Virus record (IMG/VR): IMGVR_UViG_2512047041_000005
Coordinates: 1 to 51,583 of that record
Length of the DNA stretch: 51,583 nucleotides
From: a virus
Lineage: Duplodnaviria > Heunggongvirae > Uroviricota > Caudoviricetes
Strand: one strand, 5' to 3'
Position numbers and translations under genes: made by a program. The notes under the pieces were generated by a model. That model was not told the origin of the DNA and did not search any database. It was given only the letters and a program-made list of their open reading frames with translations. Numbering within the stretch: position 1 is the stretch's first letter; the number at the start of each line of letters is the position of its first letter. This document shows positions 1 to 32,789 of this stretch, piece after piece.

Positions 1-1143
1 CTATGCTGTTTTGATATCTACGATAATCCAGTCTTTACCACGATCATCATTGTATCGGTCGGTCATTTTTCTGGATTTATGGCCTAACAACTTTTGCGTA
101 TCCAGACCCTGTTCCCGATATAACCGTTCTGACAGAGATCGCTGCTCATGAAATGTGGGCGCAGTTCCTGGCTCCCATTTTATGCCACATTTTTCCCTGG
201 CCTTTTTAAAAGCCGTTGTAAGAGTATTTGCAGAAACCTGGTCTCCTCTGTTTGCTTGAGAGGTAGTGTGACGGTAATGGACCAGATATTTACTAACAAC
301 AGCATCCCTGCACTGAGATATAACTTCACGAAGGGTAATATTCAGAGCATCGCATTTCAGGCTAAGCGGAATAGCAAGTTTTGAACCGGTTTTTTCCTGA
401 GTAATGTGCAACATGTCGTCCCATATATCAGAGAATTTCAAATTGCAGATATCGCCTAAACGTTGTCCAGTAACAAGAGCAAGTAGCATGCCGCATTTTA
501 AATAGGGCTGCCGTCTGCTTACGCTTTCAAATATTGCCTGCCATTCGGGCAGTGATAATCTTTGGCGGTTTACTCGATTTCGCGGTTGTTTTGTTGCCTG
601 CGCTGGGTTAAATCCTGGCGGAACATGTCCTGCGTGTTGTGCTTCTTTGAAGACGTCGATCAACACCATTCTCACGACTTGCGCCATCCTGTTATGACCT
701 TCAGCCTTTACAGCATCAATTATTTCGGCAATATCAAGTGCGGTAATATCCTTGAGGTGTTGCATTCCACAATGCTCACGGAAAAGACGAATGGGTTTAC
801 CTTTTTGCCGATAGGAGTTGGGTTTTAGTTCATTATGTTGCAGCCTGTCCTCCTGGATAGAAATATATTTATCAAGCCATTCTGTCACCGTAATGTCTGA
901 GCGCCTGCCTTTCATTCTTTCTAGACGCTCATTGACGCTTAATATTTGTCGGGTACGTTGTTCAGCAATAATGGTATTTGCTTCAGTAGCAACTTGTTTT
1001 GCTTCATTCTCATCAGTTCCTAAGCTATGAAAACGACCGGATAGTGGATGTTTGTATTGCCAATATACCTTTCCGGTTCGCTTATCTAATTTGCAATATA
1101 AATTGGGTATAGAGATTTTGTGAGATCGGGGTCTAGCAGCCAT
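1..1143 (-). CDS. int: Lambdoid tyrosine integrase
   Basis: 380-aa ORF at the prophage left edge; C-terminal catalytic region (HEQRSLSERLY...LGHKSRKMTDRY) typical of lambda-family integrases; xis overlaps its start. Confidence 0.9.
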   Translation of the reverse strand: MAARPRSHKISIPNLYCKLDKRTGKVYWQYKHPLSGRFHSLGTDENEAKQVATEANTIIAEQRTRQILSVNERLERMKGRRSDITVTEWLDKYISIQEDRLQHNELKPNSYRQKGKPIRLFREHCGMQHLKDITALDIAEIIDAVKAEGHNRMAQVVRMVLIDVFKEAQHAGHVPPGFNPAQATKQPRNRVNRQRLSLPEWQAIFESVSRRQPYLKCGMLLALVTGQRLGDICNLKFSDIWDDMLHITQEKTGSKLAIPLSLKCDALNITLREVISQCRDAVVSKYLVHYRHTTSQANRGDQVSANTLTTAFKKAREKCGIKWEPGTAPTFHEQRSLSERLYREQGLDTQKLLGHKSRKMTDRYNDDRGKDWIIVDIKTA

Positions 1144-1369
1144 CAGCGATTATCCGTTGGAGTTTTGGGTTTGCGTTTATTGGGAGTTGCGGTTCTGCAA
1201 GCGTTCCTACAAAACGGGAATTTCGGTCAATCATCCAGTAGCGACCAACTTTTATAGCGGGTGGGGCCATCATTTTCCCTTGCGCGTATTTTTTCAGAAC
1301 TCGCTCACTTGGTGCTAAGTCCCCAAATTCTTCTTTAGCCCAGTCCTGTAAAGTGATTAGTCGAGACAT
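1133..1369 (-). CDS. xis: Excisionase-like protein
   Basis: 78-aa ORF overlapping int start by 11 nt, ATG preceded by GAGGAGGA; resembles excisionase-like proteins of lambdoid prophages. Confidence 0.7.
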   Translation of the reverse strand: MSRLITLQDWAKEEFGDLAPSERVLKKYAQGKMMAPPAIKVGRYWMIDRNSRFVGTLAEPQLPINANPKLQRIIADGC

Positions 1370-1508
1370 TTGTCCTCCTCTTAGCTGCTGAGGGAGTTTG
1401 TGACCGATATATCTGACATGATATTAAGCTCATGGCAGGTACATCTCTTGACTGGTCATAGAGATAAATTTAATGCTGAGAAATGCAGTATTGAATTTAT
1501 CAATTTTT

Positions 1509-1748
1509 CTATTTCCTGCGTATGGCACGTAACTTCTTAATGTGTTCTGCTGTATCGATCTCTTCGGCTATCCGATCTGCATCAGCTTTATTCACAGGTT
1601 CAAAGTCATGATTAAAGCGGAACATGCTGGCGATACATGTTCTGCCTTTTTGGATGTAGTGAACTTTGTTGTGGGTAGAACGCAGGATTTTGCAGGGAGT
1701 GCCGTGGTGGTCGACGTACCAGGTGTTAGGAAAAATGATTCTGAACAT
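1509..1748 (-). CDS. Hypothetical early-region protein
   Basis: 79-aa ORF in the xis-exo leftward operon; no recognisable motif. Confidence 0.45.
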   Translation of the reverse strand: MFRIIFPNTWYVDHHGTPCKILRSTHNKVHYIQKGRTCIASMFRFNHDFEPVNKADADRIAEEIDTAEHIKKLRAIRRK

Positions 1749-1795
1749 TTTTACACCTCAGTTGGACGATGTTGAAATTTGCTGCTTTGAGGCCA

Positions 1796-2014
1796 TTACA
1801 ATCCCCATTGTTTGTTCTTAAGTTCGATCTCCTCCTGGCAACTTGCACAAGTCCGACAACCCTGAACGGCCAGGCGTCTTCGCTCATCTATGGGATCGCC
1901 ACACTCACAACAATGAGTGGCAGATATAGCCTGGTGGTTCAGGCGGCGCATTTTTATTGCTGTGTTGCGCTGTAATTCTTCAATTTCTGATGCTGAATCA
2001 ATGATGTCTGCCAT
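1796..2014 (-). CDS. TraR/DksA-family C4 zinc-finger protein
   Basis: 72 aa with CCECG...C..C zinc-ribbon pattern typical of phage TraR-like proteins. Confidence 0.65.
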   Translation of the reverse strand: MADIIDSASEIEELQRNTAIKMRRLNHQAISATHCCECGDPIDERRRLAVQGCRTCASCQEEIELKNKQWGL

Positions 2015-2112
2015 CTTCCATTAATCCCTGAATTGTTGGTTAATACGCTTGAGGGTGAATGCGAATAATAGAAAAGGAGCCTGTAGCTCCCTGATGATTT
2101 TGCTTTTCATGT

Positions 2113-2328
2113 TCACCGTTCCTTAAAAACGCCGTTTAACATGCCGATCGCTAGGCTTAAATGAGTCGGTGTGAATCCCATCAGCGTTACCGTTTCGCGG
2201 TGCTTCTTCAGTACGCTACGGCAAATGTCATCGACGTTTTTATCCGGAAACTGCTGTCTGGCTTTTTTGATTTCACAATTAGCCTGACGGGCAATGCTGC
2301 GAAGGGCGTTATTATGTTCTATTGTCAT
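2113..2328 (-). CDS. Hypothetical protein (71 aa from internal ATG)
   Basis: Starts 8 nt downstream of the stop of the 250-aa ORF; the upstream part of the 117-aa track ORF overlaps that gene. Confidence 0.4.
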   Translation of the reverse strand: MTIEHNNALRSIARQANCEIKKARQQFPDKNVDDICRSVLKKHRETVTLMGFTPTHLSLAIGMLNGVFKER

Positions 2329-2335
2329 ATTGGCC

Positions 2336-3088
2336 TCACACTTCGAATGCCAGCTGAGGGGTAAAGACGTCCCGTTCAGCGTTGTAATTAAGTGAACTGG
2401 CACTGTTGAATGATTCAATGCGTTCCACAAGAACTTGCGTACGGGTTTCTTTACTTGCGGGAGCATATGGCGAACCTACCCAGGATTTGTCGATGCCTAT
2501 ATTTCTTGCGACGTTCGTGCTGTCTGCAGACGAAAGCGGTACATGAGTAAAAATGTCTTTATTTAACATCCGTAACCCATGAATCTTGGTGATTGGGTAG
2601 CCGTACTGATCTACAACATGACGTATAAGATCGCGTAGTTTAGCCCGACACGCTCTCGGTCGTTTTGCATCGTATTCCCCCATCGAGCCGATGCAGACGC
2701 GGGGAAACTCATGGCACAGACGAATAAATCGCTCATCTGGTTCGTTCATGTGCCACACCGGAGCACCAATAAATTTACCGTGAGGCCATGCCGCAATCAG
2801 GGCGTCATTCTCTTCACTGGTTCCGCCGATAACATCCGGGATAACCGCGAATGAGAAACGAGGGTGATTACCCCAGCGTTCAACAAATCTGTAATATTCA
2901 TTCCAGTCTACGGCCTTGTTTTTTGTCCAGAATGTGAATGCACCATTATCAAGAGCAAATGATTGGGTGACTTCGGAAGCCAGATCAATCTGAGCTGGAT
3001 TAGCAAAACTGATGAATGCGTGTCTGCCTTTCCAGGCTTTCAACGCACAGGTATCGGGAGTTATTGGACCACCGTGAAAATGAATCAT
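2336..3088 (-). CDS. Hypothetical 250-aa protein, possible TGT/DpdA-like enzyme (speculative)
   Basis: Translationally coupled to upstream ORF (ATGA overlap); contains D-N-G-A-F reminiscent of the D-S-G-G-F motif of tRNA-guanine transglycosylases; assignment unverified. Confidence 0.55.
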   Translation of the reverse strand: MIHFHGGPITPDTCALKAWKGRHAFISFANPAQIDLASEVTQSFALDNGAFTFWTKNKAVDWNEYYRFVERWGNHPRFSFAVIPDVIGGTSEENDALIAAWPHGKFIGAPVWHMNEPDERFIRLCHEFPRVCIGSMGEYDAKRPRACRAKLRDLIRHVVDQYGYPITKIHGLRMLNKDIFTHVPLSSADSTNVARNIGIDKSWVGSPYAPASKETRTQVLVERIESFNSASSLNYNAERDVFTPQLAFEV

Positions 3089-3243
3089 ACACTCTCCCGT
3101 TTATTATTTATCTCCTCAGCCAGTCGCTGGGCTTTCAGCGGATTTCGGATAACAGAAGGCCCGGGAAATACCCAGCCTCGCTTTGTAACGGAGTAGACGA
3201 AAGTGATCGCACCTACCCGGATATTATCGTGAGGATGCTTCAT
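3085..3243 (-). CDS. Small ORF (52 aa), lambda orf60a-like
   Basis: [19 protein letters not shown]...; ATGA overlaps with exo stop upstream and the 250-aa ORF downstream. Confidence 0.4.
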
Positions 3244-3920
3244 CGCCATTGCTCCCCAAATACAAAACCAATTTCAGCCAGTGCCTCGTCCATTTTTTCG
3301 ATGAACTCCGGCACCATCTCGTCAAAACTCGCCATGTACTTTTCATCCCGCTCAACCACGACATAATGCAGTCCTTCACGCTTCATACGCGGGTCATAGT
3401 TGGCAAAGTACCAGGCATCTTTTCGCGTCACCCACATGCTGTACTGCACCTGGGCCATGTAAGCTGACTTTATGGCCTCGAAACCACCGAGCCGGAACTT
3501 CATGAAATCCCGGGAGGTAAACGGGCATTTCAGTTCAAGGCCGTTGCCGTCACTGCATAAACCATCTGGAGAGCAGGCGGTACGCATACTTTCGTCGCGA
3601 TAGATGATCGGGGATTCAGTAACATTCACGCCGGAAGTGAACTCAAACAGGGCTCTGGCGTCGTTCTCGTACTGTTTTCCCCAGGCCAGCGCTTTAGCGT
3701 TAACTTCCGGAGCCACACCGGTGCAAACCTCAGCAAGCAGGGTGTGGAAGTAGGACATTTTCATGTCAGGCCACTTTTTTCCGGAGCGGGGTTTTGCTAT
3801 TACGTTATGAACTTCTGAAGCTGTGATGACGCCGAGCCGTAATTTGTACCACGCATCATCCCCCTGTTCGACAGCTCTCACGTCGATCCCGGTACGCTGC
3901 AGGATAATGTCCGGTGTCAT
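3240..3920 (-). CDS. exo: Lambda exonuclease (Red alpha)
   Basis: 226 aa, near-identical to lambda Exo as remembered ([24 protein letters not shown]...GFVFGEQWR). Confidence 0.95.
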
Positions 3921-4707: not shown

Positions 4708-5004
4708 TTATACCTCTGAATCAATATCAGCCTGATGGTGAGCAATGGTTTCAACTATGTACCGGATGTGTTCTGCCATGCGCTCCTGAAACTCAACATC
4801 GTCATCAAACGCACGGGTAATGGCTTTTTTGCTGGCCCCGTGGCGTTGTAAATGATCGATGCATAGCGATTCAAACAGGTGCTGGGGCAGGCCTTTTTCC
4901 ATGTCGTCTGCCAGTTCTGCCTCTTTCTCTTCACGGGCGATCTGCTGGTAGTGACGCGCCCAGCTCTGAGCCTCAAGACGATCCTGAATGTAATAAGCGT
5001 TCAT
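4708..5004 (-). CDS. gam: Gam (RecBCD inhibitor), short form
   Basis: 98 aa [31 protein letters not shown]...; matches lambda GamS; upstream [13 protein letters not shown] is in another frame. Confidence 0.9.
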
Positions 5005-5079
5005 GGCTGAACTCCTGAAAATGGCTGTGAAAATATCGCCCGCGAAATGCCAGGCTGATTAGGAAAACAGGAAAGGGGG

Positions 5080-10349: not shown

Positions 10350-10922
10350 TTACATTTCAGGTTGCGTTATGACAGTCCCAACAGGGTGATAGCGGTAGAT
10401 CGTTGACAGTCCAATATCATAGATAATTGCCAGCCGCTTTCTGTCATACCCTTTCTGGAGCAATCTTGCGATCTGCTCATGCTGCTCCTTCGTCAGTTTC
10501 GGGCGACGTCCTCCAACTCTTCCTTGTGCTCGCGCAGCAGCCAGTCCTGCCAGCGTGCGCTCAACTATCAGTTCACGCTCCATTTCTGCCAGTGCACCCA
10601 TCATATGAAAAAAGAACCTTCCCATCGGAGTGCTGGTATCGATTGAATCCGTCAGACTGCGAAAATTGACACCTTTTGCGCGTAACTCTTCTGTGAGAGC
10701 AATGAGGTGTTTCATTCTTCTACCCAACCGATCCAGCTTCCAGACCACCAATGTATCCCCTCTTTTAAGGCACTTTAAAGCGCGTTTCAGGCCTGGTCGT
10801 TCCGACTTGGTTCCGCTCATTTTGTCCTCAAAAATCTGTTCACATCCTGCGCACATTAATGCATTGCGTTGCAAATCTGTGTTTTGGTCATTTGTTGACA
10901 CACGTATGTAGCCAATCAGCAT
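10350..10922 (-). CDS. Serine DNA invertase (Pin/Gin/Hin family)
   Basis: 190 aa from internal ATG: MLIGYIRVSTNDQNTDLQRNALMCAGCEQIFEDK..., close to e14 Pin / Mu Gin; C-terminal HTH. Confidence 0.9.
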   Translation of the reverse strand: MLIGYIRVSTNDQNTDLQRNALMCAGCEQIFEDKMSGTKSERPGLKRALKCLKRGDTLVVWKLDRLGRRMKHLIALTEELRAKGVNFRSLTDSIDTSTPMGRFFFHMMGALAEMERELIVERTLAGLAAARAQGRVGGRRPKLTKEQHEQIARLLQKGYDRKRLAIIYDIGLSTIYRYHPVGTVITQPEM

Positions 10923-10988
10923 TAAAAATACTCCCTTTTGAGTGGTTAAAGTACTGAGATAATGTGGGGAGGATTTGAGAGATAAACG

Positions 10989-11211
10989 TTGGTTTGGGGG
11001 AAGGCTCTGCATTGCCTGTTGGTGTACCGGTTCCGTGGCCCACCGCCACACCGCCAGAAGGCTGGTTAAAGTGCGACGGGCGCGCCTTTACAAAAGAACA
11101 ATATCCTGTTCTGGCCAGAGCCTACCCGACCCTCCGTCTTCCCGATTTACGCGGTGAGTTTATCCGTGGATGGGACGACGGGCGCAAGATTGACGAGGGG
11201 CGTAAGTTGCT
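10989..11211. repeat. Inverted repeat A (~222 bp) flanking the invertible fibre segment
   Basis: About 90 percent identical to the reverse complement of 12384-12605; encodes the shared fibre peptide GEGSALPVGVPVPWPTATPP...GWDDGRK. Confidence 0.8.
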
Positions 11212-11467
11212 TTCATGGCAGAAAGGTACACTGGTCGGCGGTCATGACGATAACGATTCTGCGCTTGATATCTCGTACATGAGTAACGGAAATAATATTG
11301 ACTATGGCGGCGATAAGGTGTTTGCGGGGAATTACCGTAGCGATTATTTGTGGTACGCAGTGCTGGGTGGAACAAACAGTCGCGCAAAAGCCGAATTAAA
11401 CGGAGCATTCTTTAACATAACCCGCCCCCGCAATATCGCGTTTAACTATATCGTGAGGGCGGCGTGA
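10994..11467 (+). CDS. Alternative tail-fibre C-terminal cassette (silent orientation)
   Basis: No ATG (track start is TTG, a Leu codon in the repeat); begins with the IR-encoded peptide and ends NIAFNYIVRAA like the expressed fibre; would fuse to the fibre after inversion. Confidence 0.6.
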   Translation: MGEGSALPVGVPVPWPTATPPEGWLKCDGRAFTKEQYPVLARAYPTLRLPDLRGEFIRGWDDGRKIDEGRKLLSWQKGTLVGGHDDNDSALDISYMSNGNNIDYGGDKVFAGNYRSDYLWYAVLGGTNSRAKAELNGAFFNITRPRNIAFNYIVRAA

Positions 11468-12088: not shown

Positions 12089-13425
12089 TAAACTGCCCTC
12101 ACAATGTAATTAAGTGCAATGCTACGGGGTCTGACAGTGATACCCTTCGCATACCCGCTTCTGATAGAGGTCAGAATAGTAGCCTGCATACCATTGTCTG
12201 ACATTGCCACGACAGGATCGCTGAATGTTGTCCCGTCCGGCATTTTAAAGCTGCCCTCACGAAGGTCTGTAATGGAATCTTCATTGTTGAATCCCATGCC
12301 GACTATCCCCGAGGTTCCCGTAGTGTCCTGGTTATAATAATCCAGCATTGCTGTTCTTAACAGCGTTGCCCCTTGTGCGGACAGCAACTTACGTCCTGTA
12401 TCAACTTTGCGCCCGTCGTCCCATCCACGGATAAACTCACCGCGTAAATCGGGAAGACGGAGGGTCGGGTAGGCTCTGGCCAGAACAGGATATTGTTCTT
12501 TTGTAAAGGCGCGCCCGTCGCACTTTAACCAGCCTGCTGGCGGTGTGGCAGTGGGCCACGGAACAGGTACACCAACGGGCAGCGCCGAGCCTTCCCCCAA
12601 ACCAAGGTAATTGAGGACATCTTTTATACTGCCCTTAGCGATAATAGCGCGACCAATAGCTGTAAGGGTTGCCAGCGCTGCTCGGTCTGCTCCGGTAAAA
12701 TAAGGCAACCGATCTGCTGCAGTGGCAAGTCCTGCCAGAGCAGTGAGCGTGGCATCTGCCGGTTGTTTTCCGTTTGCCAGATCGTATGCAGCCTTGACCG
12801 CTTTCGGTGTGGCGGCCAGTATTTCAGACGTGCTGTTGATGGCACTGCTCAATTGTACGGTGCCTTTTGCCGTCAGCGAGGCAGCAGGCACTCCCGTTAT
12901 CTGACTCCACGGGTGAGTGTGGCTGACGGGCGCCTTGCCGGCTGCAAGGTCGTATGCAGCCTTGACCGCCTTCGGCGTGGCAGCCTCAGTTTCTGATTGA
13001 CTGTCCGTGGCGCTGCTCAGTTGTACGGTGCCTTTTGCCGTCAGTGAAGCCGCAGGCACTCCCGTTATCTGACTCCACGGGTGAGTGTGGCTGGCAGGCG
13101 CCTTGCCGGCTGCCAGGTCGTATGCAGCCTTGACCGCTTTTGGTGTGGCGGCCAGCGTTTCAGAGGTGCTGTTGGTGGCACTGCTCAGTTGGGTGAACCC
13201 CTTAGCTGTCAGTGTCGCGTCCGGGTGGTTACGGGAACGTACGTGTTCAGCCAGTGACTGTGCGGCTTCCTCCGTTTTCTTCTTCAGCCATTTCGTCCTG
13301 TTTGCCAGTTGCCGGGGGGCTCGATTTGATATCCCGTCTGCACCACCCAGAACCGGATCTGATGTCTCCAGTTGATAGATATTTTCTTCCCACTTTTCTG
13401 TTTCATTCAGGTTTCCCATAATCAA
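12088..13425 (-). CDS. Tail fibre protein
   Basis: Collagen-like/ATPKAVKAAYDLA repeats (168-bp tandem units near 12900-13240), C-terminal NYIVRAV; probable ATG 6 nt inside the track ORF. Confidence 0.85.
   Translation of the reverse strand: MIMGNLNETEKWEENIYQLETSDPVLGGADGISNRAPRQLANRTKWLKKKTEEAAQSLAEHVRSRNHPDATLTAKGFTQLSSATNSTSETLAATPKAVKAAYDLAAGKAPASHTHPWSQITGVPAASLTAKGTVQLSSATDSQSETEAATPKAVKAAYDLAAGKAPVSHTHPWSQITGVPAASLTAKGTVQLSSAINSTSEILAATPKAVKAAYDLANGKQPADATLTALAGLATAADRLPYFTGADRAALATLTAIGRAIIAKGSIKDVLNYLGLGEGSALPVGVPVPWPTATPPAGWLKCDGRAFTKEQYPVLARAYPTLRLPDLRGEFIRGWDDGRKVDTGRKLLSAQGATLLRTAMLDYYNQDTTGTSGIVGMGFNNEDSITDLREGSFKMPDGTTFSDPVVAMSDNGMQATILTSIRSGYAKGITVRPRSIALNYIVRAV
12384..12605. 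repeat. Inverted repeat B, partner of 10989-11211
   Basis: Lies inside the expressed tail-fibre gene at the constant/variable boundary. Confidence 0.8.
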
Positions 13426-15096: not shown

Positions 15097-15434
15097 AGCA
15101 GCTCCTGAGTCCGGGTCTGTCCGTCTGAGCCTTTCCAGCTCACCCGGAGCGTAAGATGTTCGCCGTCGACGGCGGGTTTAACTGACATAAGCTGGCAGCG
15201 GGGCTCCCAGCGCCGGATGGCATCGACGGATTCGCGCACCACATGCGGAATGGCCCGGTCTACAGGCTAGTCGATATAAAGATGCAGATTGCTGCCGAAC
15301 TCCGGGCGATGCGGGTCGCTGCCGCGGGGAGTCCGCAGGATAATTTGAATCGCCTGCCGGATATCATCCAGCCCCCGGACAATTTCGCCGGGAGCCTGCA
15401 GGGCTGGTTGCCAGAATACTGAGGTTGTTTTCAT
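15087..15434 (-). pseudogene. Baseplate W-like (gp25 family) gene with in-frame amber codon
   Basis: 116 codons, ATG at about 15432-15434; reads ...FGSNLHLYID-TAG-PVDRAIPHVVRESVDAIRRWEPR...; TAG at about 15267-15269; no ORF of 60 aa or more in the track across this gap. Confidence 0.7.
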
Positions 15435-15488: not shown

Positions 15489-16085
15489 TCAGTGGGAGTG
15501 GTGGCTGGAGTTTTCGCCATCAGACAACATACTGCCCGTGGCATGGGCATTCCCTTTAATCTCGATATTGCCATGGATGGTCGCGGTAACACCTTCACCA
15601 CCAGAACCCGCCATGCCTCCTTCGTAAATCAGCTTACCCCTGACACGCAGATCTCCGGTAAGTTCGGTTTCCGGTGCGTCAATCGTGGCTTTCTGTGTTT
15701 TCAATACCACATCAGCACCACACTCAATGACAATATGCTCAATGCCGCCCCGGATGATCAGAGTGTGCGTCTTCCGGTTGTAGCTGTACTCTGCACCATC
15801 AGCAAACCGGGTTCCCCGGATATTTTTGTCACTGAACGGTGGTTTATCGACGTCTGAATACACCGCGCCCAGAATAACACCATCCTCGCCGTTGGCATCG
15901 AGCAGCACCTCAACCTGCTCCCCCACGTCAGGGAGCCAGTAATCTTTGTTATCCTGGGTATTGCGCTGCAGCACGTTAAGCCAGTTTGTGCGCAGGTTAT
16001 CGCATTCAGGCAGACGAACGCGGGCCTGAACCCTGTCGGCATCAACGGCACTGACCGTACCGACCTGACGAGTGACACCAGTCAT
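15489..16085 (-). CDS. Baseplate spike (P2 gpV-like)
   Basis: 198 aa, glycine-rich with histidine-rich C-terminus (SSHHSH) typical of spike apex. Confidence 0.75.
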   Translation of the reverse strand: MTGVTRQVGTVSAVDADRVQARVRLPECDNLRTNWLNVLQRNTQDNKDYWLPDVGEQVEVLLDANGEDGVILGAVYSDVDKPPFSDKNIRGTRFADGAEYSYNRKTHTLIIRGGIEHIVIECGADVVLKTQKATIDAPETELTGDLRVRGKLIYEGGMAGSGGEGVTATIHGNIEIKGNAHATGSMLSDGENSSHHSH

Positions 16086-17236
16086 TTTTTCTTCTCCTTA
16101 ATCACCGTCGATGTACTGCCATCCGGGTGATAAACCGTGAGTTTCTGAGTTTTTTGTTTTTTCCCTCTTGTGACTGGCCCCCGTGCCACTTCCAGCTCTG
16201 TGGTGTAGCCGCTGTTACGGTCAAACGCATGGCGGGCAGTGGTTATGAGCCATGGCCCGGATAACTGCCCAAAACCCACCAGTTCAATTTTGTTGCCTGC
16301 TGTCAGTTGAGGTGTTCCCGTCAGCGTCAGGGAGCCGTTCTGCTGGTATTCGTTATGTCTGGCCAGTGCTGAATCCGCTTTAATCCGGGCACTGTCCGGG
16401 TCGTTGACGCGGCTGTTAACTTTAAGTGAGTCAGCGCTGGTAACCTTACCACCTTTGAGCTTTTTGTCGCTTTCACGGGTACCACCATCAGCTTCGTAGA
16501 CGATCAGTTTTTTACTGCTGCTTTTCTGGTGTTTTACCTTTGCAGATTTATAGACCCGGTTGATGGTGTCACGCAGGGAAAAGCGGGCCACATCCTGCGG
16601 TTTTAACTGCCTGACCGGCTCCTGACTGCGCAGTGTGGCCAGATGAGAAAAAATCAGCTGGTCACTGACCACTTTCACTGCATAACCATACTCGCTGGCC
16701 AGCCGGCGCAGAAAACCCACGTCGGTTTCAGCATACTGGGTCACCCGGTCGATTCTGATGGACTCAATGCTGCCCACCAGTTTCAGCCGGTGCTTTCTGG
16801 CAATCCGCCCCGCAACAGCTGCCAGCGTGGTGTTCTCAAAACCACGACTGGTTTTAGTCCGCAGGGCACTGTTAACCGAGGTGGCCACCCCACGGATAGA
16901 AACAACGGAAGCGGGCGAACTCACTTCGATCTCGTCTATAGAGAACGTACCGCAGGACAGCAGCTTCTCGCCCTGATAGCCCATTTTCAGCGTCAGCGTG
17001 TCACCCTTGCCCGGATACCATTTATCCAGCCAGCGGCCATCGGTGTCGTCCAGCTCCACCTCAATGGTATCGGACTCATTTTTGATGTTATCGCTCCAGG
17101 TCACACGGGTGACATAAGGCGCGATATCAGAGGTGATGTTTTTCTGCAGATACCACAGAGTGAACACCGGTGTCAGCACATCGCTGACGCCGGTTAACGC
17201 TGATGTGACTTGCGCAGTGCTGTTTATCTCAGCCAT
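16082..17236 (-). CDS. Tail/baseplate hub protein (P2 gpD / Mu P-like)
   Basis: 384 aa in conserved position between the U/N-like and V-like genes. Confidence 0.7.
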   Translation of the reverse strand: MAEINSTAQVTSALTGVSDVLTPVFTLWYLQKNITSDIAPYVTRVTWSDNIKNESDTIEVELDDTDGRWLDKWYPGKGDTLTLKMGYQGEKLLSCGTFSIDEIEVSSPASVVSIRGVATSVNSALRTKTSRGFENTTLAAVAGRIARKHRLKLVGSIESIRIDRVTQYAETDVGFLRRLASEYGYAVKVVSDQLIFSHLATLRSQEPVRQLKPQDVARFSLRDTINRVYKSAKVKHQKSSSKKLIVYEADGGTRESDKKLKGGKVTSADSLKVNSRVNDPDSARIKADSALARHNEYQQNGSLTLTGTPQLTAGNKIELVGFGQLSGPWLITTARHAFDRNSGYTTELEVARGPVTRGKKQKTQKLTVYHPDGSTSTVIKEKKK

Positions 17237-17436
17237 GGGGCAATATCCTCTTCTGTACGGGCTTCTTCAGCCTCAATCACCGGGATCAGTAACAACAGCC
17301 CGGAGGGCAGCACCGGCGTGATGGCCACGTGCGGATTGGCGGCAATAATCCGGGGATAGCCCAGCGGGTCACCGTAGTACTGCCATGCCAGCGAATCCCA
17401 GCGCTCTCCGTCACGGGTAACATGTTCAAGAAACAT
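17224..17436 (-). CDS. Tail protein X-like (70 aa)
   Basis: Small ORF overlapping neighbours; ATG 3 nt inside the track ORF, which begins at GTG. Confidence 0.55.
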   Translation of the reverse strand: MFLEHVTRDGERWDSLAWQYYGDPLGYPRIIAANPHVAITPVLPSGLLLLIPVIEAEEARTEEDIAPWLR

Positions 17437-18320
17437 CACACACTCCTCGTCAGTATTCTGGCGGCCATTGCACTTAATCCCGGAGACATGCGGTTGAATG
17501 CTGTGCCGGCGGCGTTAAGCTGCCCGGAAACGGTATCCAGAGCACCTGCAATATTTCTTTTGTCCACACCACTCAGCGCAGACTGTGCCTGCTGTACATA
17601 CGTGGCTGCTTCGCTGGCTGTTCTGGCCAGACTGATGGCATCGGGCATGGATTCAGAGAGTGCGTTAAACGCCGGAACACTTTTCCCCAGAGCCCCGGAG
17701 ATATTACCCAGTCCGCTCATCAGCCCCGGCACACGGGTCAGTGCGACAACGGGGTTATCCTTCATTTTCTGTGTCACCCGAACGGCGCTGATAGTGGTCT
17801 GGAGTACAGACTGCGCCTGTTTCGCATAGTTGACGCCGTTGCGGATGAACTGCGCCACCCCTGAAGGTGAAGGAATGGCACCGGAGACCGCCCCGACACC
17901 CGGGAGCTTCGTGCGTATTGCCGGTGGTTGCAGAGGATTTTTCGGGTCACCGGTGTATTCCCGGAGAGACACGGTGGCACTGACAGCCAGCACGTTGCCG
18001 GTACTGTCAGTCTGCTCGCTGGTTGCAGTCACATCGGTAATCACGAACCAGCCGCGATAGTCACCGTTGCCGAAGACCAGCGCCAGTGCCTGATGGGCTT
18101 TCATGGCTGTTCGCAGTCTCGCCAGCTCCACATCGGGTACACAATAATGCTGATGGAAAACCAGAGTTATCTGGATTTCGTCCAGCCTGTCGCCGACGAA
18201 CTGCAGGCCAGGCTTACCCCCGATGCGGGCATGCTCCGCATAATCGACGCCGAACGTGGCCTCGAAGCCGTCCCAGTAGGTAATCAGCTCAAACTCAATA
18301 TCACCCAGTACGGCAAACAT
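17436..18320 (-). CDS. Tail protein (P2 gpU-like N-terminus / Mu N-like)
   Basis: 294 aa immediately downstream of the tape measure gene. Confidence 0.6.
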   Translation of the reverse strand: MFAVLGDIEFELITYWDGFEATFGVDYAEHARIGGKPGLQFVGDRLDEIQITLVFHQHYCVPDVELARLRTAMKAHQALALVFGNGDYRGWFVITDVTATSEQTDSTGNVLAVSATVSLREYTGDPKNPLQPPAIRTKLPGVGAVSGAIPSPSGVAQFIRNGVNYAKQAQSVLQTTISAVRVTQKMKDNPVVALTRVPGLMSGLGNISGALGKSVPAFNALSESMPDAISLARTASEAATYVQQAQSALSGVDKRNIAGALDTVSGQLNAAGTAFNRMSPGLSAMAARILTRSV

Positions 18321-21271
18321 CAGCGGTACTCCTTACGTTGTTTCTGAGCCAGCAGACGCTCCAGCATTTTTTCCAGCTCATGCAGACTCATATTCAGGGC
18401 ACCAGTCAGTCCTGCAGGCGCTGTGGTTTCCCTGCCATTGAGGAAAAACTGAGGATTAAAGCTGACCTGGATACCACCAGACGTTCCACCGCCGGTTGCA
18501 GCTGCACCACGGCCTGAATATCCGGCAGCCAGGATTTCAGGCGAGGGGATACGGGGAACATCCGGTGTCATCTCATTTGCCAGACGTTGCCCTGGTAAAA
18601 TCGATGCCCGGGTGGAGAGCGGAATAGCGGGCATGGAAGACAAACTATTGATTACGGCTCCGATCGCATTTTTAGCAGACGACATAAACCCATTGATATC
18701 GGGCAACGGCATACTGAAGCGAACACCTGAAGTGTTATCTCGTATTTCTGGCCCCTGAATGCTCACGGGCATTCTGGGGAGCAGTTCACTGGCCATTCGC
18801 TGCCCGGCCAGAGCTGCAAGCGGAGTGGTCCGCTGCAGGCCAATGGCGGCCCCCTGCGCGATATTGTCACCAAAGCCCATAAACACGCGGCTCGGCGAAT
18901 GAATGCCCAGCTTTTCGCTGAACCAGCCACTGATGCTGTCACCCATTCCGGTTACACTGGATTTGAGCGACTCCCATTTGTTTTTGATACCGTTAATCAG
19001 ACCATCGACAAGATGGCCACCGAAGTCGGTAAACTTTGCCGGCAGATCAACACCAAGATATTTCAGCGCAACTGCAAAGGCTTTATAGAGCAGACCTGCC
19101 GGCGACCAGTTAATCAGCAGCTTACCAGTTCCCGCGATACCGCCGTTAAAGGCTTCCTGAATGTCAGCCCAGCACTGTTTAAACCAGCTACTGATGCTGT
19201 CACCCATTCCGGTTACACTGGATTTGAGCGACCCCCATTTGTTTTTGATACCGTTAATCAGACCGTCGATAAGATGGCCACCGAAGTCGGTGAACTTTGC
19301 CGGCAGAGCAACGCCGAAATATTTCAGCGCAGCCGCAAAGGCTTTATAGAGCAGGCCTGCCGGCGACCAGTTAATCAGCAACTTACCAATTCCCACAATG
19401 CCGCCGTTAAAGGCTTCCTGAATGTCTGCCCAGCGCTGTTTAAACCAGCCACTGACTGCCCCCCAGTTGCGGTAGATAAGGTAAGCTGCTGCCGCGACAG
19501 CGGTGATAACGAGACCGATGGGATTCATCATCAGCGCACGTCCAATCCAGAGAACAGCACGTCCGGCGAGCATAATTCCGCGAACCAGCCCCCCGGAGAG
19601 CACGCCACTCAGTGTTCTGGCTCCTCTGGCGACGGCGCTAAATCCGGTCACCAGCCAGCGGAGCTTACCGCCTTGCCCCAGTGCGAGCGACAGACGAAGC
19701 CAGTTGGCCCGAAGTAAAACAGCATTTTTCCAGACACTTACAAAGGGGGAAATAAGGAGATTCAGCCCCAGTTTGAGACCAACAGTCGCTATCTTAATCG
19801 CAAGGAGCGCACTGATGAGCTTAAAAGCCCCACTGACAAATTGCGGGTGAGTCGCTACCCAGTGTTTTGCCCCCTGAATGAGTGGAAGCAGTTCCTGAGT
19901 CAAAGAAATAAAAGATGGAGCTAATTGATCGCCCAGCGTAATTGCCAGATCGCGACTGCTGACCATAAGTGTTTTAGTGGCTTCAAGGGGAGATTTCAGC
20001 CGCTGATCATAAGCACTGGCAAGCAAATCGTTATCCGCAGCCCTGAGAGCACCGGCACGGATCTCTCGATATCTGTCCATGTTGGCCAGCATCGGGCGGA
20101 TAAATGCCATGACCTGCATATCCGCGAACATATCGCCCAGACCAAAGTTTTTCGCCAGAGCCTGAAGTGCCTCATCTCTTGCCGTATCATTCTTTATTTT
20201 CATGGCTGATTTGAAGCCGGCCAGCGCTTCGGGGCTTTTGGCATTGAGGTAACGTTCTATAACACTCAACATCCCTTCAATCGGAGAGATCCCCGCAGCT
20301 TTATAACTCGCAATAGATCCCTGCAAATCAATACCCAGATCAGCAAACTGTTTCTGAGTATCGCGGGCAAAAATTTTGGTAAGAAAGTTTTTAAAATTAT
20401 TGGCTGCTTCGTCGGTGGAACCTGCACCGATTTTTGCTATCTGGAGACTGGCCCCGATTTCAGCAACAGCCTCTTTTCCACTGGCAATACCCGCCATCAT
20501 TGGGGCCAGGGACTGCATCCACTTGACCTGATCCGGGATTTCAAATGACCCCTGGTCACCGGCATAAGCCATAATATTCTGAACGGCACCAAAATCTCTG
20601 GCCGCACCTTTCAGGGAGTTTTGCCAGACTGCGGCCACTTTTGCCCAGTCCTGAGCAGACGTGCGTGTTGCCGTTGCCGCGCGGGCAATATCCGGCATCA
20701 GAAAACCGATATCTGACACATTATCAATATTGTCGCTGATGAGTGAACCCACCGCCTCCTGCAGCTCATCCTGATACTGATTGTATTTAAGCGCCCAGCC
20801 TTTTATCTGTCCGGCAAGTGCATCCCGCGTTTTATTGTCATATTTTGCGGTGATCGACATATCAATCATTTTGTCCTGAAAAAACATGGACTGCTGAACG
20901 GCAGGGGAAACCGTATGATAAACAGTCTGAGCCATGCCATACGCTTCAATCCCCTGACCATACAGCGCCATGCGGTTAGCTTTCAGCGCATCACTGGTAG
21001 CGGATGCCGCTGACAGACGGCGCTGCTGGCGCTCAATTTGCTCCATGGTGCGGCTTACCCGCAGCAGCTCGCTGTTGAGATGCTGCATCCGGGAAGAACC
21101 CAGTTGACCATAACGTTCTGTTGCACGGGTTAAAGCGTTCTGACGTTCCTGCAGGCGGCGTGAGGTATCGCTCAGGGAATCAAGCGCACGGCGGGTACCG
21201 CTCATTGCAGAACGGAATGTGCTGCCAATCATCCCGCCGATAACAACGCCGACTGAAAACTGTCCCGACAT
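18320..21271 (-). CDS. Tail tape measure protein
   Basis: 983 aa, helical and Gly/Ala-rich; internal 87-aa tandem duplication. Confidence 0.85.
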   Translation of the reverse strand: MSGQFSVGVVIGGMIGSTFRSAMSGTRRALDSLSDTSRRLQERQNALTRATERYGQLGSSRMQHLNSELLRVSRTMEQIERQQRRLSAASATSDALKANRMALYGQGIEAYGMAQTVYHTVSPAVQQSMFFQDKMIDMSITAKYDNKTRDALAGQIKGWALKYNQYQDELQEAVGSLISDNIDNVSDIGFLMPDIARAATATRTSAQDWAKVAAVWQNSLKGAARDFGAVQNIMAYAGDQGSFEIPDQVKWMQSLAPMMAGIASGKEAVAEIGASLQIAKIGAGSTDEAANNFKNFLTKIFARDTQKQFADLGIDLQGSIASYKAAGISPIEGMLSVIERYLNAKSPEALAGFKSAMKIKNDTARDEALQALAKNFGLGDMFADMQVMAFIRPMLANMDRYREIRAGALRAADNDLLASAYDQRLKSPLEATKTLMVSSRDLAITLGDQLAPSFISLTQELLPLIQGAKHWVATHPQFVSGAFKLISALLAIKIATVGLKLGLNLLISPFVSVWKNAVLLRANWLRLSLALGQGGKLRWLVTGFSAVARGARTLSGVLSGGLVRGIMLAGRAVLWIGRALMMNPIGLVITAVAAAAYLIYRNWGAVSGWFKQRWADIQEAFNGGIVGIGKLLINWSPAGLLYKAFAAALKYFGVALPAKFTDFGGHLIDGLINGIKNKWGSLKSSVTGMGDSISSWFKQCWADIQEAFNGGIAGTGKLLINWSPAGLLYKAFAVALKYLGVDLPAKFTDFGGHLVDGLINGIKNKWESLKSSVTGMGDSISGWFSEKLGIHSPSRVFMGFGDNIAQGAAIGLQRTTPLAALAGQRMASELLPRMPVSIQGPEIRDNTSGVRFSMPLPDINGFMSSAKNAIGAVINSLSSMPAIPLSTRASILPGQRLANEMTPDVPRIPSPEILAAGYSGRGAAATGGGTSGGIQVSFNPQFFLNGRETTAPAGLTGALNMSLHELEKMLERLLAQKQRKEYR
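18890..19450. repeat. 261-bp tandem repeat (about 2.2 copies) inside the tape measure gene
   Basis: ctgatgctgtcacccattccggttacactggatttgagcga recurs with 261-bp period; in-frame 87-aa protein repeat. Confidence 0.8.
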
Positions 21272-21346: not shown

Positions 21347-21604
21347 CTATGATTTGTCGCCGTACTCGCTTTTGATTTGCTCTTCAGCCTGCTCCAGCCA
21401 CATCTCCAGATCGTCAGTATCGAGGGCATCAATCTCCCCCGGCTGAAACCGGAACCATCTCGCCAGCAGCCCCTGCGCCTGCGTCAGCGCCCTGGTTGCT
21501 CTCACCCATCCCCGTGATGAGCTGAAATCGTTTCTGTAACTGCAGGTAATCAGCCAGATCCATATTGTCGAGATCTTCCGGGAGAAGACCAGTACTGCGG
21601 GCAA
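21347..21604 (-). CDS. Chaperone frameshift extension (E'-like), +1/-2 frame
   Basis: Open in the +1 frame relative to the chaperone and extends past its stop; acidic helical tail ...DTDDLEMWLEQAEEQIKSEYGDKS. Confidence 0.5.
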   Translation of the reverse strand: MPAVLVFSRKISTIWIWLITCSYRNDFSSSRGWVRATRALTQAQGLLARWFRFQPGEIDALDTDDLEMWLEQAEEQIKSEYGDKS

Positions 21605-21764
21605 TCAGCGGTTCGTCCCAGTCTGCCGGGTTTTTGCTGATTTTGCGCACCTGCTTCAGGTCTTTTACCGTCAGGCGTTTCAGTTCAACCAGCTCAATTC
21701 TGGTACCTGCAGCAGTGGTGAAGGGATAAGACAATTTAAAAGTATCGGATGGGGTCTGTGACAT
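21429..21764 (-). CDS. Tail assembly chaperone (E/G-like)
   Basis: 111 aa directly upstream of the tape measure gene with an overlapping extension ORF. Confidence 0.7.
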   Translation of the reverse strand: MSQTPSDTFKLSYPFTTAAGTRIELVELKRLTVKDLKQVRKISKNPADWDEPLIARSTGLLPEDLDNMDLADYLQLQKRFQLITGMGESNQGADAGAGAAGEMVPVSAGGD

Positions 21765-21960: not shown

Positions 21961-22143
21961 CTATGCTTCAATCAAATCCTCCAGTTTGCGGGCCTTTGAA
22001 CGTGTGCAGTCAATCGGGTCATTGGTTTTACGGGTATTAAAAAGGGTTTCCACCCCCGGAATATCAAGGAGGGTAAACCACGTACCATTTGACATGCCCA
22101 GTGCCGCACATCGTCCTCCTTTATCCGTCAGTTCAACACTCAC
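21961..22143 (-). CDS. Small hypothetical protein
   Basis: 60-aa ORF starting 3 nt after the tube gene stop. Confidence 0.3.
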   Translation of the reverse strand: MSVELTDKGGRCAALGMSNGTWFTLLDIPGVETLFNTRKTNDPIDCTRSKARKLEDLIEA

Positions 22144-22145
22144 CG

Positions 22146-22667
22146 TCAGCCCCCGATATTGATACGGTAGTCAGTCAGTTGATCAACACCTCCGACCCGG
22201 AAGATGTTGGCCAGATAGTCCAGTTGCAGCAGCTCTTCACCATCCAGTACCTGTCTGATATACGTGCAGGTGAAGCTACTGGAGAACTCGGCGTTCTCGT
22301 GCTGTTTGAACGTCCCCAGCGGGTTCTTCTTGAACATAATCGTCAGGAAGGTGACCAGCGGGATTTCGTCAATCAGCCCCTGCGAGCTGTAGCGCTGGAC
22401 GCTGGAACGACACTGCAGTGCCAGCGACCTGTACGGGTTCGCGGCAGACAGCATCGCATCGCGGTAAAAGCTGTTCCATTTGATTTCGCCTTCCAGTTTG
22501 TCAAAACCAGCCGGGAGTTCCACCTTACCCACCATCCCCAGCGCCTTGTGTTCCTGCATAATCATGGAGACATCGGGGAGTTTAACTTCCTCAGCCCGTC
22601 CCAGCAGGTTAGTACCATCCAGATAGATGTTGGCATTCGTGATGCGGTTTATCTCAATCTTTGACAT
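22146..22667 (-). CDS. Tail tube protein
   Basis: 173 aa immediately downstream of the sheath gene. Confidence 0.8.
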   Translation of the reverse strand: MSKIEINRITNANIYLDGTNLLGRAEEVKLPDVSMIMQEHKALGMVGKVELPAGFDKLEGEIKWNSFYRDAMLSAANPYRSLALQCRSSVQRYSSQGLIDEIPLVTFLTIMFKKNPLGTFKQHENAEFSSSFTCTYIRQVLDGEELLQLDYLANIFRVGGVDQLTDYRINIGG

Positions 22668-24094
22668 CAGTTGCCCCCTTTCAGGGTTAACAGGTATTCC
22701 GAGGTGATCTCAGTCTCAAACGTCAGTCGCTCCAGCGGCGGTGGTGGCGTATATTTGTAGCTCAGCAACAGGTGCCCGGCGGCCAGCTCCGTCTCCGGAT
22801 TGCGGGCCGGATCAAACCAGCAACGGAAGCCCAGTACCGCACCATCACCAGTCATTTTGCGACCGTAGGCGTTGACCGACTCCGTCAGTGCATCAATCAG
22901 CGCCTGAGTAATCGGCATGTCGATGTACTGCTGGCTGAAATAACGAATGGACTCGTTGATCACATCACCGGTGCGGCGAACGTTCTCAAAGTTACGCATA
23001 TGGGTGACCGTTGGCCATGCTGCCGTCCGGTTACCCCACAGACGAAGGCCGCTGCCGTAACTGCTGAATACCGTGGTGATCCCCTGTTCGTTAAGCAGGT
23101 TCACCTCACTCTGCGGGTCATCAATCATCGCGGACAGCTGGCGCTCCACGCCGGTGATCCCCAGAATCTCCTGATTGGAGGATGACCACCAGTAGCCCTT
23201 GTCCAGATCGACTCTGGCACGCAGACCTGCTGCACGCTGGCTGAGCGGCTCCAGACGCTCTGTGTTTGTCACCGGGTCATATACCTTCACATGCGGATAG
23301 CACAGACGGACGCGGTCGGAGCTGGTATTGAAGTTGATGGTGCCTTCCGGGCCACGACCTGCCAGAGCCTGTGCAAAGGTGGTACCGACAGGCGCATCAA
23401 TGTAGGTTACCGCGCCCAGCTTCTCTGCCATGGCGATAAGCTCAACTGCGACACTCTTCTGGGTGCAGAACACCGGCGCAATCAGAATTTTGGCGAAATA
23501 GCCGTACAGGTTGAAGCTGTCGTTAAGCAGCTTCATGCCGGTTCGGTTTCCGGCGCTGTTCACCCCGCCGATGATGTCCGCCGCAGTCACCTTCGACGGG
23601 TCCGCGTACTCATAGCTCACCTTCACGCTGCCACCGGCCTCAATAGCCTTGCCCAGGTTCGTGAGCACACCCGCCTGCGCATCAACACGGTAGTCCGTGT
23701 TCGCCGTGTGGGTGGTGCTGCCTTCACTGTTTTTCACCACCACATTAGCGACAACCGGATGCGCCAGTCTGGCCTGCCCTGTCGATTTGTCAAAGGTAAC
23801 CACCTCATCCTCGATCGCCGTTTTATGTTTCGCCGGGTCGAGGACGTTAATGACCAGAACGGTACCTGCACCATGGTCATAAATCGCATCCAGCGCCTGC
23901 GGAATGGTAAAGCCGGTGAACTGGCTGCCAAATGCCGCTGCGTCTTTCTCAGACAGGCACTGTACCAGCGTATTGACATCCCCCATCGGGGCGGTACCAA
24001 TCAGGCCAATAACGGCAGATTTCACCGTTTTAACCGGGCGGGCACCGTTTTCCACCTCAATGGTTTCGGGACCATGCAGATAGTTAGCTGCCAT
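22667..24094 (-). CDS. Contractile tail sheath protein
   Basis: 475 aa, Mu L / P2 FI-like. Confidence 0.85.
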   Translation of the reverse strand: MAANYLHGPETIEVENGARPVKTVKSAVIGLIGTAPMGDVNTLVQCLSEKDAAAFGSQFTGFTIPQALDAIYDHGAGTVLVINVLDPAKHKTAIEDEVVTFDKSTGQARLAHPVVANVVVKNSEGSTTHTANTDYRVDAQAGVLTNLGKAIEAGGSVKVSYEYADPSKVTAADIIGGVNSAGNRTGMKLLNDSFNLYGYFAKILIAPVFCTQKSVAVELIAMAEKLGAVTYIDAPVGTTFAQALAGRGPEGTINFNTSSDRVRLCYPHVKVYDPVTNTERLEPLSQRAAGLRARVDLDKGYWWSSSNQEILGITGVERQLSAMIDDPQSEVNLLNEQGITTVFSSYGSGLRLWGNRTAAWPTVTHMRNFENVRRTGDVINESIRYFSQQYIDMPITQALIDALTESVNAYGRKMTGDGAVLGFRCWFDPARNPETELAAGHLLLSYKYTPPPPLERLTFETEITSEYLLTLKGGN

Positions 24095-32339: not shown

Positions 32340-32789
32340 CTACTGCGCTCTGGCCCGTACTTCAGACTGGAACTTTTTGAGGTTGACGGACGCGCGGGAC
32401 AGCGTAGCCACATTCTTCGCCACCTTCGACAGCAGGGCCACGCGTTCTTTAGGATCGACTTCGCCTTCTTCCGCCTCCTGCAACTGGACAATACTCTCGA
32501 ACAGCTCGGTCTGAATAAGGGCTATCACAGCCTCCGAACGCGCATCCTGATCGTCTGCTGCGCCTTCGGTCAGCATGCGGGCCGCTTCTGTTGCCGCACG
32601 GATAGCACCATAGCGGCGCTCAATCTTCTGTCCATAGCGATGGATAGCGGATTTGCTGATGACGTACCCCCGCTCACGCAGCAGGGACTCCAGCTCGTTA
32701 TACCCGCTGAAGCCGGATTCAGTCAGCGCCCGTTCAAGCCAGCGGCGCACGTCTTCCGGCAGCTTTTCTATTGTGCTGCGTCTGGCCAT
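32340..32789 (-). CDS. Terminase small subunit-like DNA-binding protein
   Basis: 149 aa basic/helical protein immediately upstream of the terminase large subunit. Confidence 0.55.
   Translation of the reverse strand: MARRSTIEKLPEDVRRWLERALTESGFSGYNELESLLRERGYVISKSAIHRYGQKIERRYGAIRAATEAARMLTEGAADDQDARSEAVIALIQTELFESIVQLQEAEEGEVDPKERVALLSKVAKNVATLSRASVNLKKFQSEVRARAQ

Follow-up and report, generated by a model that had tools for sequence, protein, structure and literature searches.

The tape measure gene and its tandem repeat

We analyzed a tandem repeat within the tail tape measure gene of a BcepMu-like (Bcepmuvirus) transposable myovirus prophage of Escherichia coli. The prophage lies on a 51,583-nt stretch of viral DNA (Caudoviricetes; IMG/VR record IMGVR_UViG_2512047041_000005, positions 1 to 51,583), which is hereafter called the window. 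The tape measure protein (TMP) gene carries two head-to-tail copies of a 261-bp unit that encodes 87 amino acids (aa), and each copy is bordered by a 13-nt motif. The gene and the parts of its repeat array are as follows.

18320-21271, minus strand: TMP gene, 983 aa, 2952 bp, recognized from its open reading frame (ORF), PF10145 and gene order
18921-19455: tandem array, period 261, 2.0 copies, 92% matches, 0% indels, score 937 (Tandem Repeats Finder)
19184-19444 in codon phase, 19182-19442 in Tandem Repeats Finder phase, minus strand: unit A, the 5' copy in the gene, aa 610-696
18923-19183 in codon phase, 18921-19181 in Tandem Repeats Finder phase, minus strand: unit B, the 3' copy in the gene, aa 697-783
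19443-19455, minus strand: 13-nt motif TCAGTGGCTGGTT directly upstream of unit A, encoding ..SGWF, exact match
19182-19194, minus strand: 13-nt motif at the A/B junction, TCAGTAGCTGGTT, one mismatch, changing Gly to Ser
18921-18933, minus strand: 13-nt motif TCAGTGGCTGGTT at the end of unit B, exact match

An earlier note, made from the letters of the window, had described a 261-bp in-frame tandem duplication in a tape measure gene, and both parts of that description were borne out. Two copies lie within the 983-aa ORF, and the array is in frame because 261 is three times 87. The repetition of an 87-aa segment also stands, but the estimate of about 2.2 copies gave way to 2.05, since the apparent third copy amounts to the 13-nt motif only. 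The array begins at 18921 and not at 18890 as the note had it, and the gene that holds it lies on the minus strand, which corrects the note. As for the gene itself, its product matches PF10145 (PhageMin_Tail) over aa 159-340 with an E-value of 2e-20 and a score of 74 bits, where the gathering cut-off is 33.2, and the gene is placed between a tail assembly chaperone gene and the gpU/gpX/gpD genes. The window gene is 100% identical to the gene of E. coli IAI39 annotated as "phage tail tape measure protein" (WP_000016537.1) and to the AR_0013 copy, which bears the same annotation. The protein also matches gp44 of phage BcepMu (33.7% identity over 83% of its length, E = 5e-72), while a PDB sequence search with the whole TMP gave no relative.

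Tandem Repeats Finder reported 18921-19455 as the sole array in the region, and a repeat search placed the head-to-tail copies, 93% identical and free of indels, at 18921-19181 and 19182-19442. A 261-bp direct repeat at this identity cannot be a chance match. Units A and B differ at 19 of 261 nt and at 9 of 87 aa, and the 13-nt motif has three matches where 0.09 would be expected by chance. Between the two units, dS is 0.19 and dN is 0.046; the resulting dN/dS of 0.24 implies that both copies are under purifying selection. The duplication is not brand new.

Authenticity of the repeat and its effect on assembly and annotation

Two independent complete genomes, those of IAI39 and AR_0013, carry the 2952-bp two-copy gene with 100% identity, and in ECA64 it differs by one base. 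We found 77 records at least 99% identical to the window gene, and the two-copy gene is present in hundreds of further assemblies. It is hardly credible that the assembler expanded or collapsed the repeat of a gene that truly has one or three copies. Repeats of this length can indeed misassemble: the record of phage PhiKM (PQ738613, locus L001) has a run of 100 Ns at 4915-5014, within unit A, and labels the gene as "disrupted by sequencing gap", so the repeat does break short-read assemblies. However, the two-copy state is no artefact, because independent complete genomes agree on it and the copies have diverged by 7%. With differences at 19 of 261 positions, the copies are not interchangeable and reads can distinguish them, and the ORF remains in frame throughout. 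The statement in the earlier note that such repeats are prone to assembly collapse or expansion is therefore right in general, given the PhiKM gap and the annotation splits described below, but does not apply to the two-copy state of the window.

Annotation is affected as well. The PGAP pipeline splits three of the four intact three-copy genes that we examined into two "partial" pseudogenes, labelled "incomplete, partial in the middle of a contig". On translation, the ORFs concerned (443-3655 in locus L007, 703-3915 in L009 and 443-3655 in L013) each consist of 1070 uninterrupted codons with no internal stop. These pseudogene calls are an annotation artefact caused by the repeat expansion, and false calls of this kind for intact three-copy genes could bias estimates of the number of intact prophages.

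Natural prophages carry one, two or three units

We counted units with a hidden Markov model of the unit among the best 120 protein matches, in which fragments and a few odd lengths fall between the classes. One unit was present in 26 of 26 proteins of 896 aa, two in 43 of 44 proteins of 983 aa and three in 17 of 17 proteins of 1070 aa. The earlier note had proposed change by unit steps, with comparison to homologous tape measure genes as the check; for gene length this proposal holds among close relatives, in which alleles of one, two and three units were found. No four-unit protein was seen at the top of the score-ranked protein match list, and the ORFs were intact at every locus fetched.

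The gene family occurs in about 633-635 of 5,426 complete E. coli genomes (roughly 12%). These divide into the following classes, whose counts are not independent samples, as clones such as ST131 are heavily represented.

One-copy class: 69 genomes, about 11%, in which a one-copy test query was covered by at least 80% in one place
Two-copy class: about 440 genomes, about 70%, the remainder
Three-copy class: about 120 genomes, about 19%, from about 123 genomes that did not cover a two-copy query by at least 80%

Assignment to the three-copy class was checked on an evenly spaced sample of 60, in which the genomes that fell short of this coverage were those with three-copy alleles, and four of these alleles were verified by sequence. 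A direct BLAST count of three-copy genes is not diagnostic, since pieces in two-copy genomes get joined.

At the DNA level, 25 variable sites within the unit show mosaics among the alleles, of which the following are examples in the order of the units along the gene.

Three-copy alleles L009 and L013: A (identical to unit A of the window), next a hybrid changing from B-type (to nt 56) to A-type (from nt 64), and last B
Three-copy alleles L007 and L008: A, A, B
One-copy allele L006: a single unit that is A-type to nt 101 and B-type from nt 111

Protein signatures reveal further switch points among the one-copy alleles. Because the hybrid units have breakpoints that differ between alleles, gain and loss of units have been recurrent, and hybrids of this kind are the expected products of recombination between misaligned units.

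Genes with one, two and three units are all found in complete-looking prophages at different chromosomal sites, from which it follows that each length variant has spread by transposition or infection. The tube protein is identical across the one-, two- and three-unit prophages, and the sheath protein is identical in the two- and three-unit ones. The two-copy allele of the window is also carried, at another insertion site, by a prophage annotated without pseudogenes, for example in strain 025542-1 (NZ_CP035832). Strain ECKH-100 (NZ_CM181230) is an example with one unit and strain EC11 (NZ_CP027255) one with three.

Other length differences occur in the same gene. TMPs of this prophage family have 821, 896, 961, 983 or 1070 aa. 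The 961-aa allele is without 22 aa (aa 540-561, LVTGFSAVARGARTLSGVLSGG; window 19589-19654), and a segment of about 73 aa (aa ~828-900, window ~18570-18790), bounded by GQR(M/L)A motifs, is missing from the 821-aa alleles of the type found in Klebsiella phage KP12. The N-terminal half of the KP12 TMP (L003; aa ~120-460) is nearer to BcepMu gp44 than to the window protein, and its C-terminal half is close to the window protein, which suggests mosaic recombination within the tape measure gene.

Origin of the duplication

One copy is the ancestral state, since a single unit is what the relatives further removed contain, namely Klebsiella phage KP12, the 821-aa E. coli alleles, a Salmonella Infantis prophage and BcepMu gp44. 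In single-copy genes, the motif of about 13 nt that encodes SGWF already borders the unit on both sides. The ancestral gene held one unit between 13-nt direct repeats (TCAGTGGCTGGTT), and slippage or illegitimate recombination between these motifs, 261 nt apart, probably produced the first duplication. Recombination between the flanking motifs would give exactly the junction that we observed. Later, homologous recombination of misaligned units, through unequal crossing-over or gene conversion, has added and removed whole units repeatedly, and the outcome is the natural prophages with one, two or three units, always in frame.

The TMP is stretched out within the tail tube and fixes the length to which tube and sheath polymerise. 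Judging from other phages, each extra unit would lengthen the tail by about 13-15 nm, or about 9%. The two-copy allele of the window is intact but stands among genes with amber stops (described below), and its effect on length probably goes unexpressed in the source strain. Taken as a whole, this explanation, which joins a duplication at microhomology, recombinational gain and loss of units and the lengthening of a molecular ruler, is in our judgement probably correct.

The 87-aa module and its predicted effect on tail length

The surroundings of the repeat within the TMP are given below. Hydrophobic segments were located with a Kyte-Doolittle scan (19-residue window, mean of at least 1.6).

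19472-19537, minus strand: hydrophobic, transmembrane-like segment just before the repeat, aa 579-600
19748-19840, minus strand: second hydrophobic, transmembrane-like segment, aa 478-508
18881-18910, minus strand: conserved LGIHSPSRVF motif just after the repeat, aa 788-797, kept in KP12 and in BcepMu gp44

The module encoded by one unit is widespread, with matches in 615 representative proteins at E ≤ 1e-3, of which 326 reach E ≤ 1e-10. Its residues P28 and P48 are invariant, and W5, W26, F51 and the glycines are nearly so. A single copy is found in 67 of the full-length representatives, two copies in 22, and three or four in two. Some of these proteins contain copies that resemble each other more closely than they resemble any copy outside the protein, a sign of independent duplications. 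No Pfam family matched the module, even at E ≤ 10, and the only PHROG family that covers it in full is phrog_5690, whose function is unknown. A profile of the module gave weak PDB matches (E = 6e-4 to 0.014) to the C-terminal parts of the tape measure chains 9h4p, 6v8i, 9d93 and 9m8o, and the match to the phage 80-alpha TMP (6v8i) spans its equivalent "GIHSPS" stretch. These matches are consistent with a TMP, and we draw no fold assignment from them. An AlphaFold model from a 26-sequence alignment places four helices at residues 2-13, 15-25, 28-42 and 51-85, so that the module is predicted, at low confidence (pLDDT 59.8), to be mostly helical.

The tryptophan and phenylalanine residues within the units are spaced by 4, 7, 14, 10, 7, 8, 3, 16 and 17 residues. 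We considered whether the array belongs to the class of TMP repeats of 11 or 18 aa in which these aromatic residues recur, and it does not: we found no periodicity of 11 (or 18) aa in the units, where autocorrelation at lag 11 does not exceed the background, and the unit is 87 aa long.

One unit would add about 13-15 nm to the tail, which amounts to three to four tube rings if each ring rises by about 4 nm, as in contractile-tail structures. This range follows from a scaling of 0.146 to 0.17 nm per residue, the values for phages TP901-1 and KS10, respectively. In TP901-1, engineered deletions and a duplication in the TMP change tail length in proportion, and 118 nm correspond to about 810 length-determining residues, or about 0.146 nm per aa (PMC5099701). 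For the Mu-like myovirus KS10, a tail of about 140 nm set against a TMP of 811 aa gives 0.17 nm per residue (PMC2628397).

Several points weigh against this explanation. The step in tail length is derived here from genes, with a scaling borrowed from other phages. The hybrid units could stem from gene conversion rather than from reciprocal unequal crossing-over, as the data fit both, and the part given to the 13-nt motif in the first duplication is drawn from the position of that motif. In addition, the structure model of the module is of low confidence (pLDDT 59.8). The module may also be a functional domain and not a plain ruler, and not fully extended in the tube, because it is conserved, in particular at its prolines and glycines, and lies between a hydrophobic segment and the GIHSPS motif.

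This last point leads to the main rival explanation, in which the module serves in membrane insertion, in channel formation or in binding to the hub during DNA injection, and extra copies alter that function without changing tail length in proportion. The step would then be smaller, or the effect a different one. The size of the conserved family (615 representatives at E ≤ 1e-3, with P28 and P48 invariant) and the position of the module directly after a transmembrane-like segment would suit such a role. The helix breaks in the model would permit a folded-back shape, and in TP901-1 the repeats near the C-terminus are required for plaque formation besides their part in length (PMC5099701). However, in-frame deletions and insertions in the body of all tested TMPs, hydrophobic regions included, shifted tail length proportionally (PMC5099701), and the entire TMP must fit into the lumen of the tube. 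Moreover, the extra copies are not needed for function, since most relatives have one. We consider the functional-domain explanation unlikely, and retain the lengthening of a ruler by whole units as the better account of the array.

Comparison with known tape measure proteins

The ruler principle was set by experiments on gpH of phage lambda and gp29 of phage T4 (Katsura and Hendrix, 1984; Abuladze et al., 1994; both cited in PMC13585406), and it has been suggested that repeats ease the natural duplication and deletion of TMP segments (Mahony et al., 2016; PMC5099701). Both the principle and the idea of a repeat-eased route are established (PMC5099701, PMC3271669), and the window gene had already been annotated as a TMP. 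T4, like the prophage analyzed here, is of the contractile-tail type. However, gpH and gp29 show no detectable sequence relationship to the window protein, and natural repeat polymorphism is not described for either of them.

The TMP of TP901-1, as the work of Pedersen (2000) is relayed in PMC5099701, resembles the window gene in that the ruler becomes longer or shorter when segments are gained or lost in frame. In contrast to the present case, TP901-1 is a siphovirus with repeats of 11 or 18 aa marked by tryptophan and phenylalanine, and its variants were made in the laboratory, whereas here the tail is contractile, the unit has 87 aa and the series is natural. The TMP units described by Belcaid, Bergeron and Poisson (2011; PMC3271669) likewise vary in tandem number among relatives by duplication and loss, but they are 11 aa long with regularly spaced tryptophan and phenylalanine, a periodicity that the 87-aa unit does not have. 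BcepMu gp44 and the related Bcepmuvirus TMPs are homologous to the window gene and stand in the same gene order, although gp44 (846 aa) carries a single, shorter copy of the module. With in-frame units, a number of units that differs among close relatives and hybrid units, the window gene belongs with the TMPs that change by tandem-unit duplication and loss.

Our literature search turned up no paper that describes the repeat in this E. coli TMP or its variation in copy number. According to a 2026 survey, tandem repeats are typically absent from the TMPs of myoviruses (PMC13585406), which makes a natural series of a long unit in a contractile-tail phage a useful example. It is a tidy natural case of a known route of tail-length change and no new kind of system. 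TMPs are the textbook molecular ruler, and the evidence for change by unit steps comes nearly all from engineered mutants of non-contractile phages. Public genomes hold a ready natural series, in which apparently inducible contractile-tail prophages that are otherwise near-identical carry one to three modules. This series could be used to calibrate the nanometres per residue of a myovirus ruler and to probe whether host range depends on tail length.

A bolder possibility, and a long shot in our estimation, is that the one-, two- and three-unit series is a selectively maintained polymorphism of tail length, with recombination between units acting as a fast "length switch". If this were true, a phage could adjust its tail to how thick the envelope or capsule of the host is, the maximum of three units would mark a functional ceiling, and a contractile-tail phage would offer a rare natural case of a ruler with variable length.

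The tail gene cluster and the host prophage

The genes around the TMP gene were identified from Pfam matches, as follows.

22667-24094, minus strand: tail sheath gene (PF04984; PF17482 is listed for the tube and sheath region)
22146-22667, minus strand: tail tube gene (PF04985, among the neighbour Pfam matches)
21429-21764, minus strand: gpE-like tail assembly chaperone gene upstream of the TMP gene (PF10109, E = 5.5e-21)
17436-18320, minus strand: gpU-like gene downstream of the TMP gene (PF06995)
16082-17236, minus strand: gpD-like hub gene downstream of the TMP gene (PF05954)

Together with the RefSeq annotation of IAI39, these matches give the order sheath, tube, chaperone (E/E'), TMP, gpU, gpX and gpD, which is a standard P2/Mu-type cluster for a contractile tail.

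Several features place the prophage among the BcepMu-like transposable phages. At one end lies a transposition module with a gene for a 589-aa protein with an integrase catalytic domain (DDE transposase-like) and a gene for an ExeA-family ATPase; these were read from the annotation of IAI39, and matching ORFs are present in the window. A gene for a Gin-like recombinase lies at the opposite end. Phage PhiKM, which is filed under the genus Bcepmuvirus, has 96.8% nucleotide identity over the TMP gene. In a colinear stretch of 27.85 kb, the window differs from IAI39 by 8 single-nucleotide polymorphisms (SNPs) and from AR_0013 by 5, and so is exactly neither of them. The insertions differ by strain, adjoining or lying within ygcQ-side genes, lptF, yqhA, irp2 and a DUF1107 gene, and a site next to paeA is also recorded; this scatter fits Mu-like random transposition.

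At their right ends (loci L014, L016, L017, L018 and L019), near-identical prophages adjoin truncated host genes. The truncated neighbours include lptF in ECA64, yqhA in EC11, irp2 (yersiniabactin synthetase) in Eco889 and the DUF1107 gene in ECKH-100.

Three in-frame TAG codons interrupt late genes of the window prophage.

32340-32342, minus strand: TAG in a DUF3486 family gene, CAG in intact relatives
21961-21963, minus strand: TAG in a small conserved ORF between the tube and chaperone genes, TGG in intact relatives
15267-15269, minus strand: TAG in the gp25/W baseplate gene, TGG in intact relatives

Owing to these stops, the window prophage is probably defective and makes no tails, and its two-copy ruler would be unused in the source strain. 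The TAG in the gp25 gene is common to IAI39 and AR_0013 only, among the 635 genomes with the gene. The prophage of ECA64, which has another insertion site, is separated from the window by 8 nucleotide differences over 27.85 kb; two of the three nonsense changes are among these 8, and the third TAG is present in ECA64 too. The prophage thus looks like one that was recently inactivated by nonsense mutations. No tRNA gene was found in a search of the window for a suppressor tRNA. Deaminase-like hypermutation was considered as the source of the stops and rejected, since comparison with an intact relative shows a balanced set of substitutions (27 G>A, 27 A>G, 26 C>T and 18 T>C).

The three stops in late genes might suggest that the duplication is itself degenerative noise in a decaying prophage, of no biological meaning. 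We consider this very improbable. The same two-copy allele resides elsewhere in prophages annotated without pseudogenes, such as that of strain 025542-1, and the dN/dS of 0.24 between the copies speaks against decay. The duplication is also older than the stops, because ECA64 has the gene, with one base different, yet is without two of the three.

In the tail-fibre region of the window, inverted repeats of 229 nt at 10986-11214 and 12380-12608, 93% complementary, flank a segment of 1165 nt, which is adjoined by a Gin-like recombinase gene (~10351-10923). The orientation of this segment in the window is opposite to that in IAI39 and AR_0013, which is consistent with a switch like the G segment of phage Mu that is active now or was until recently.

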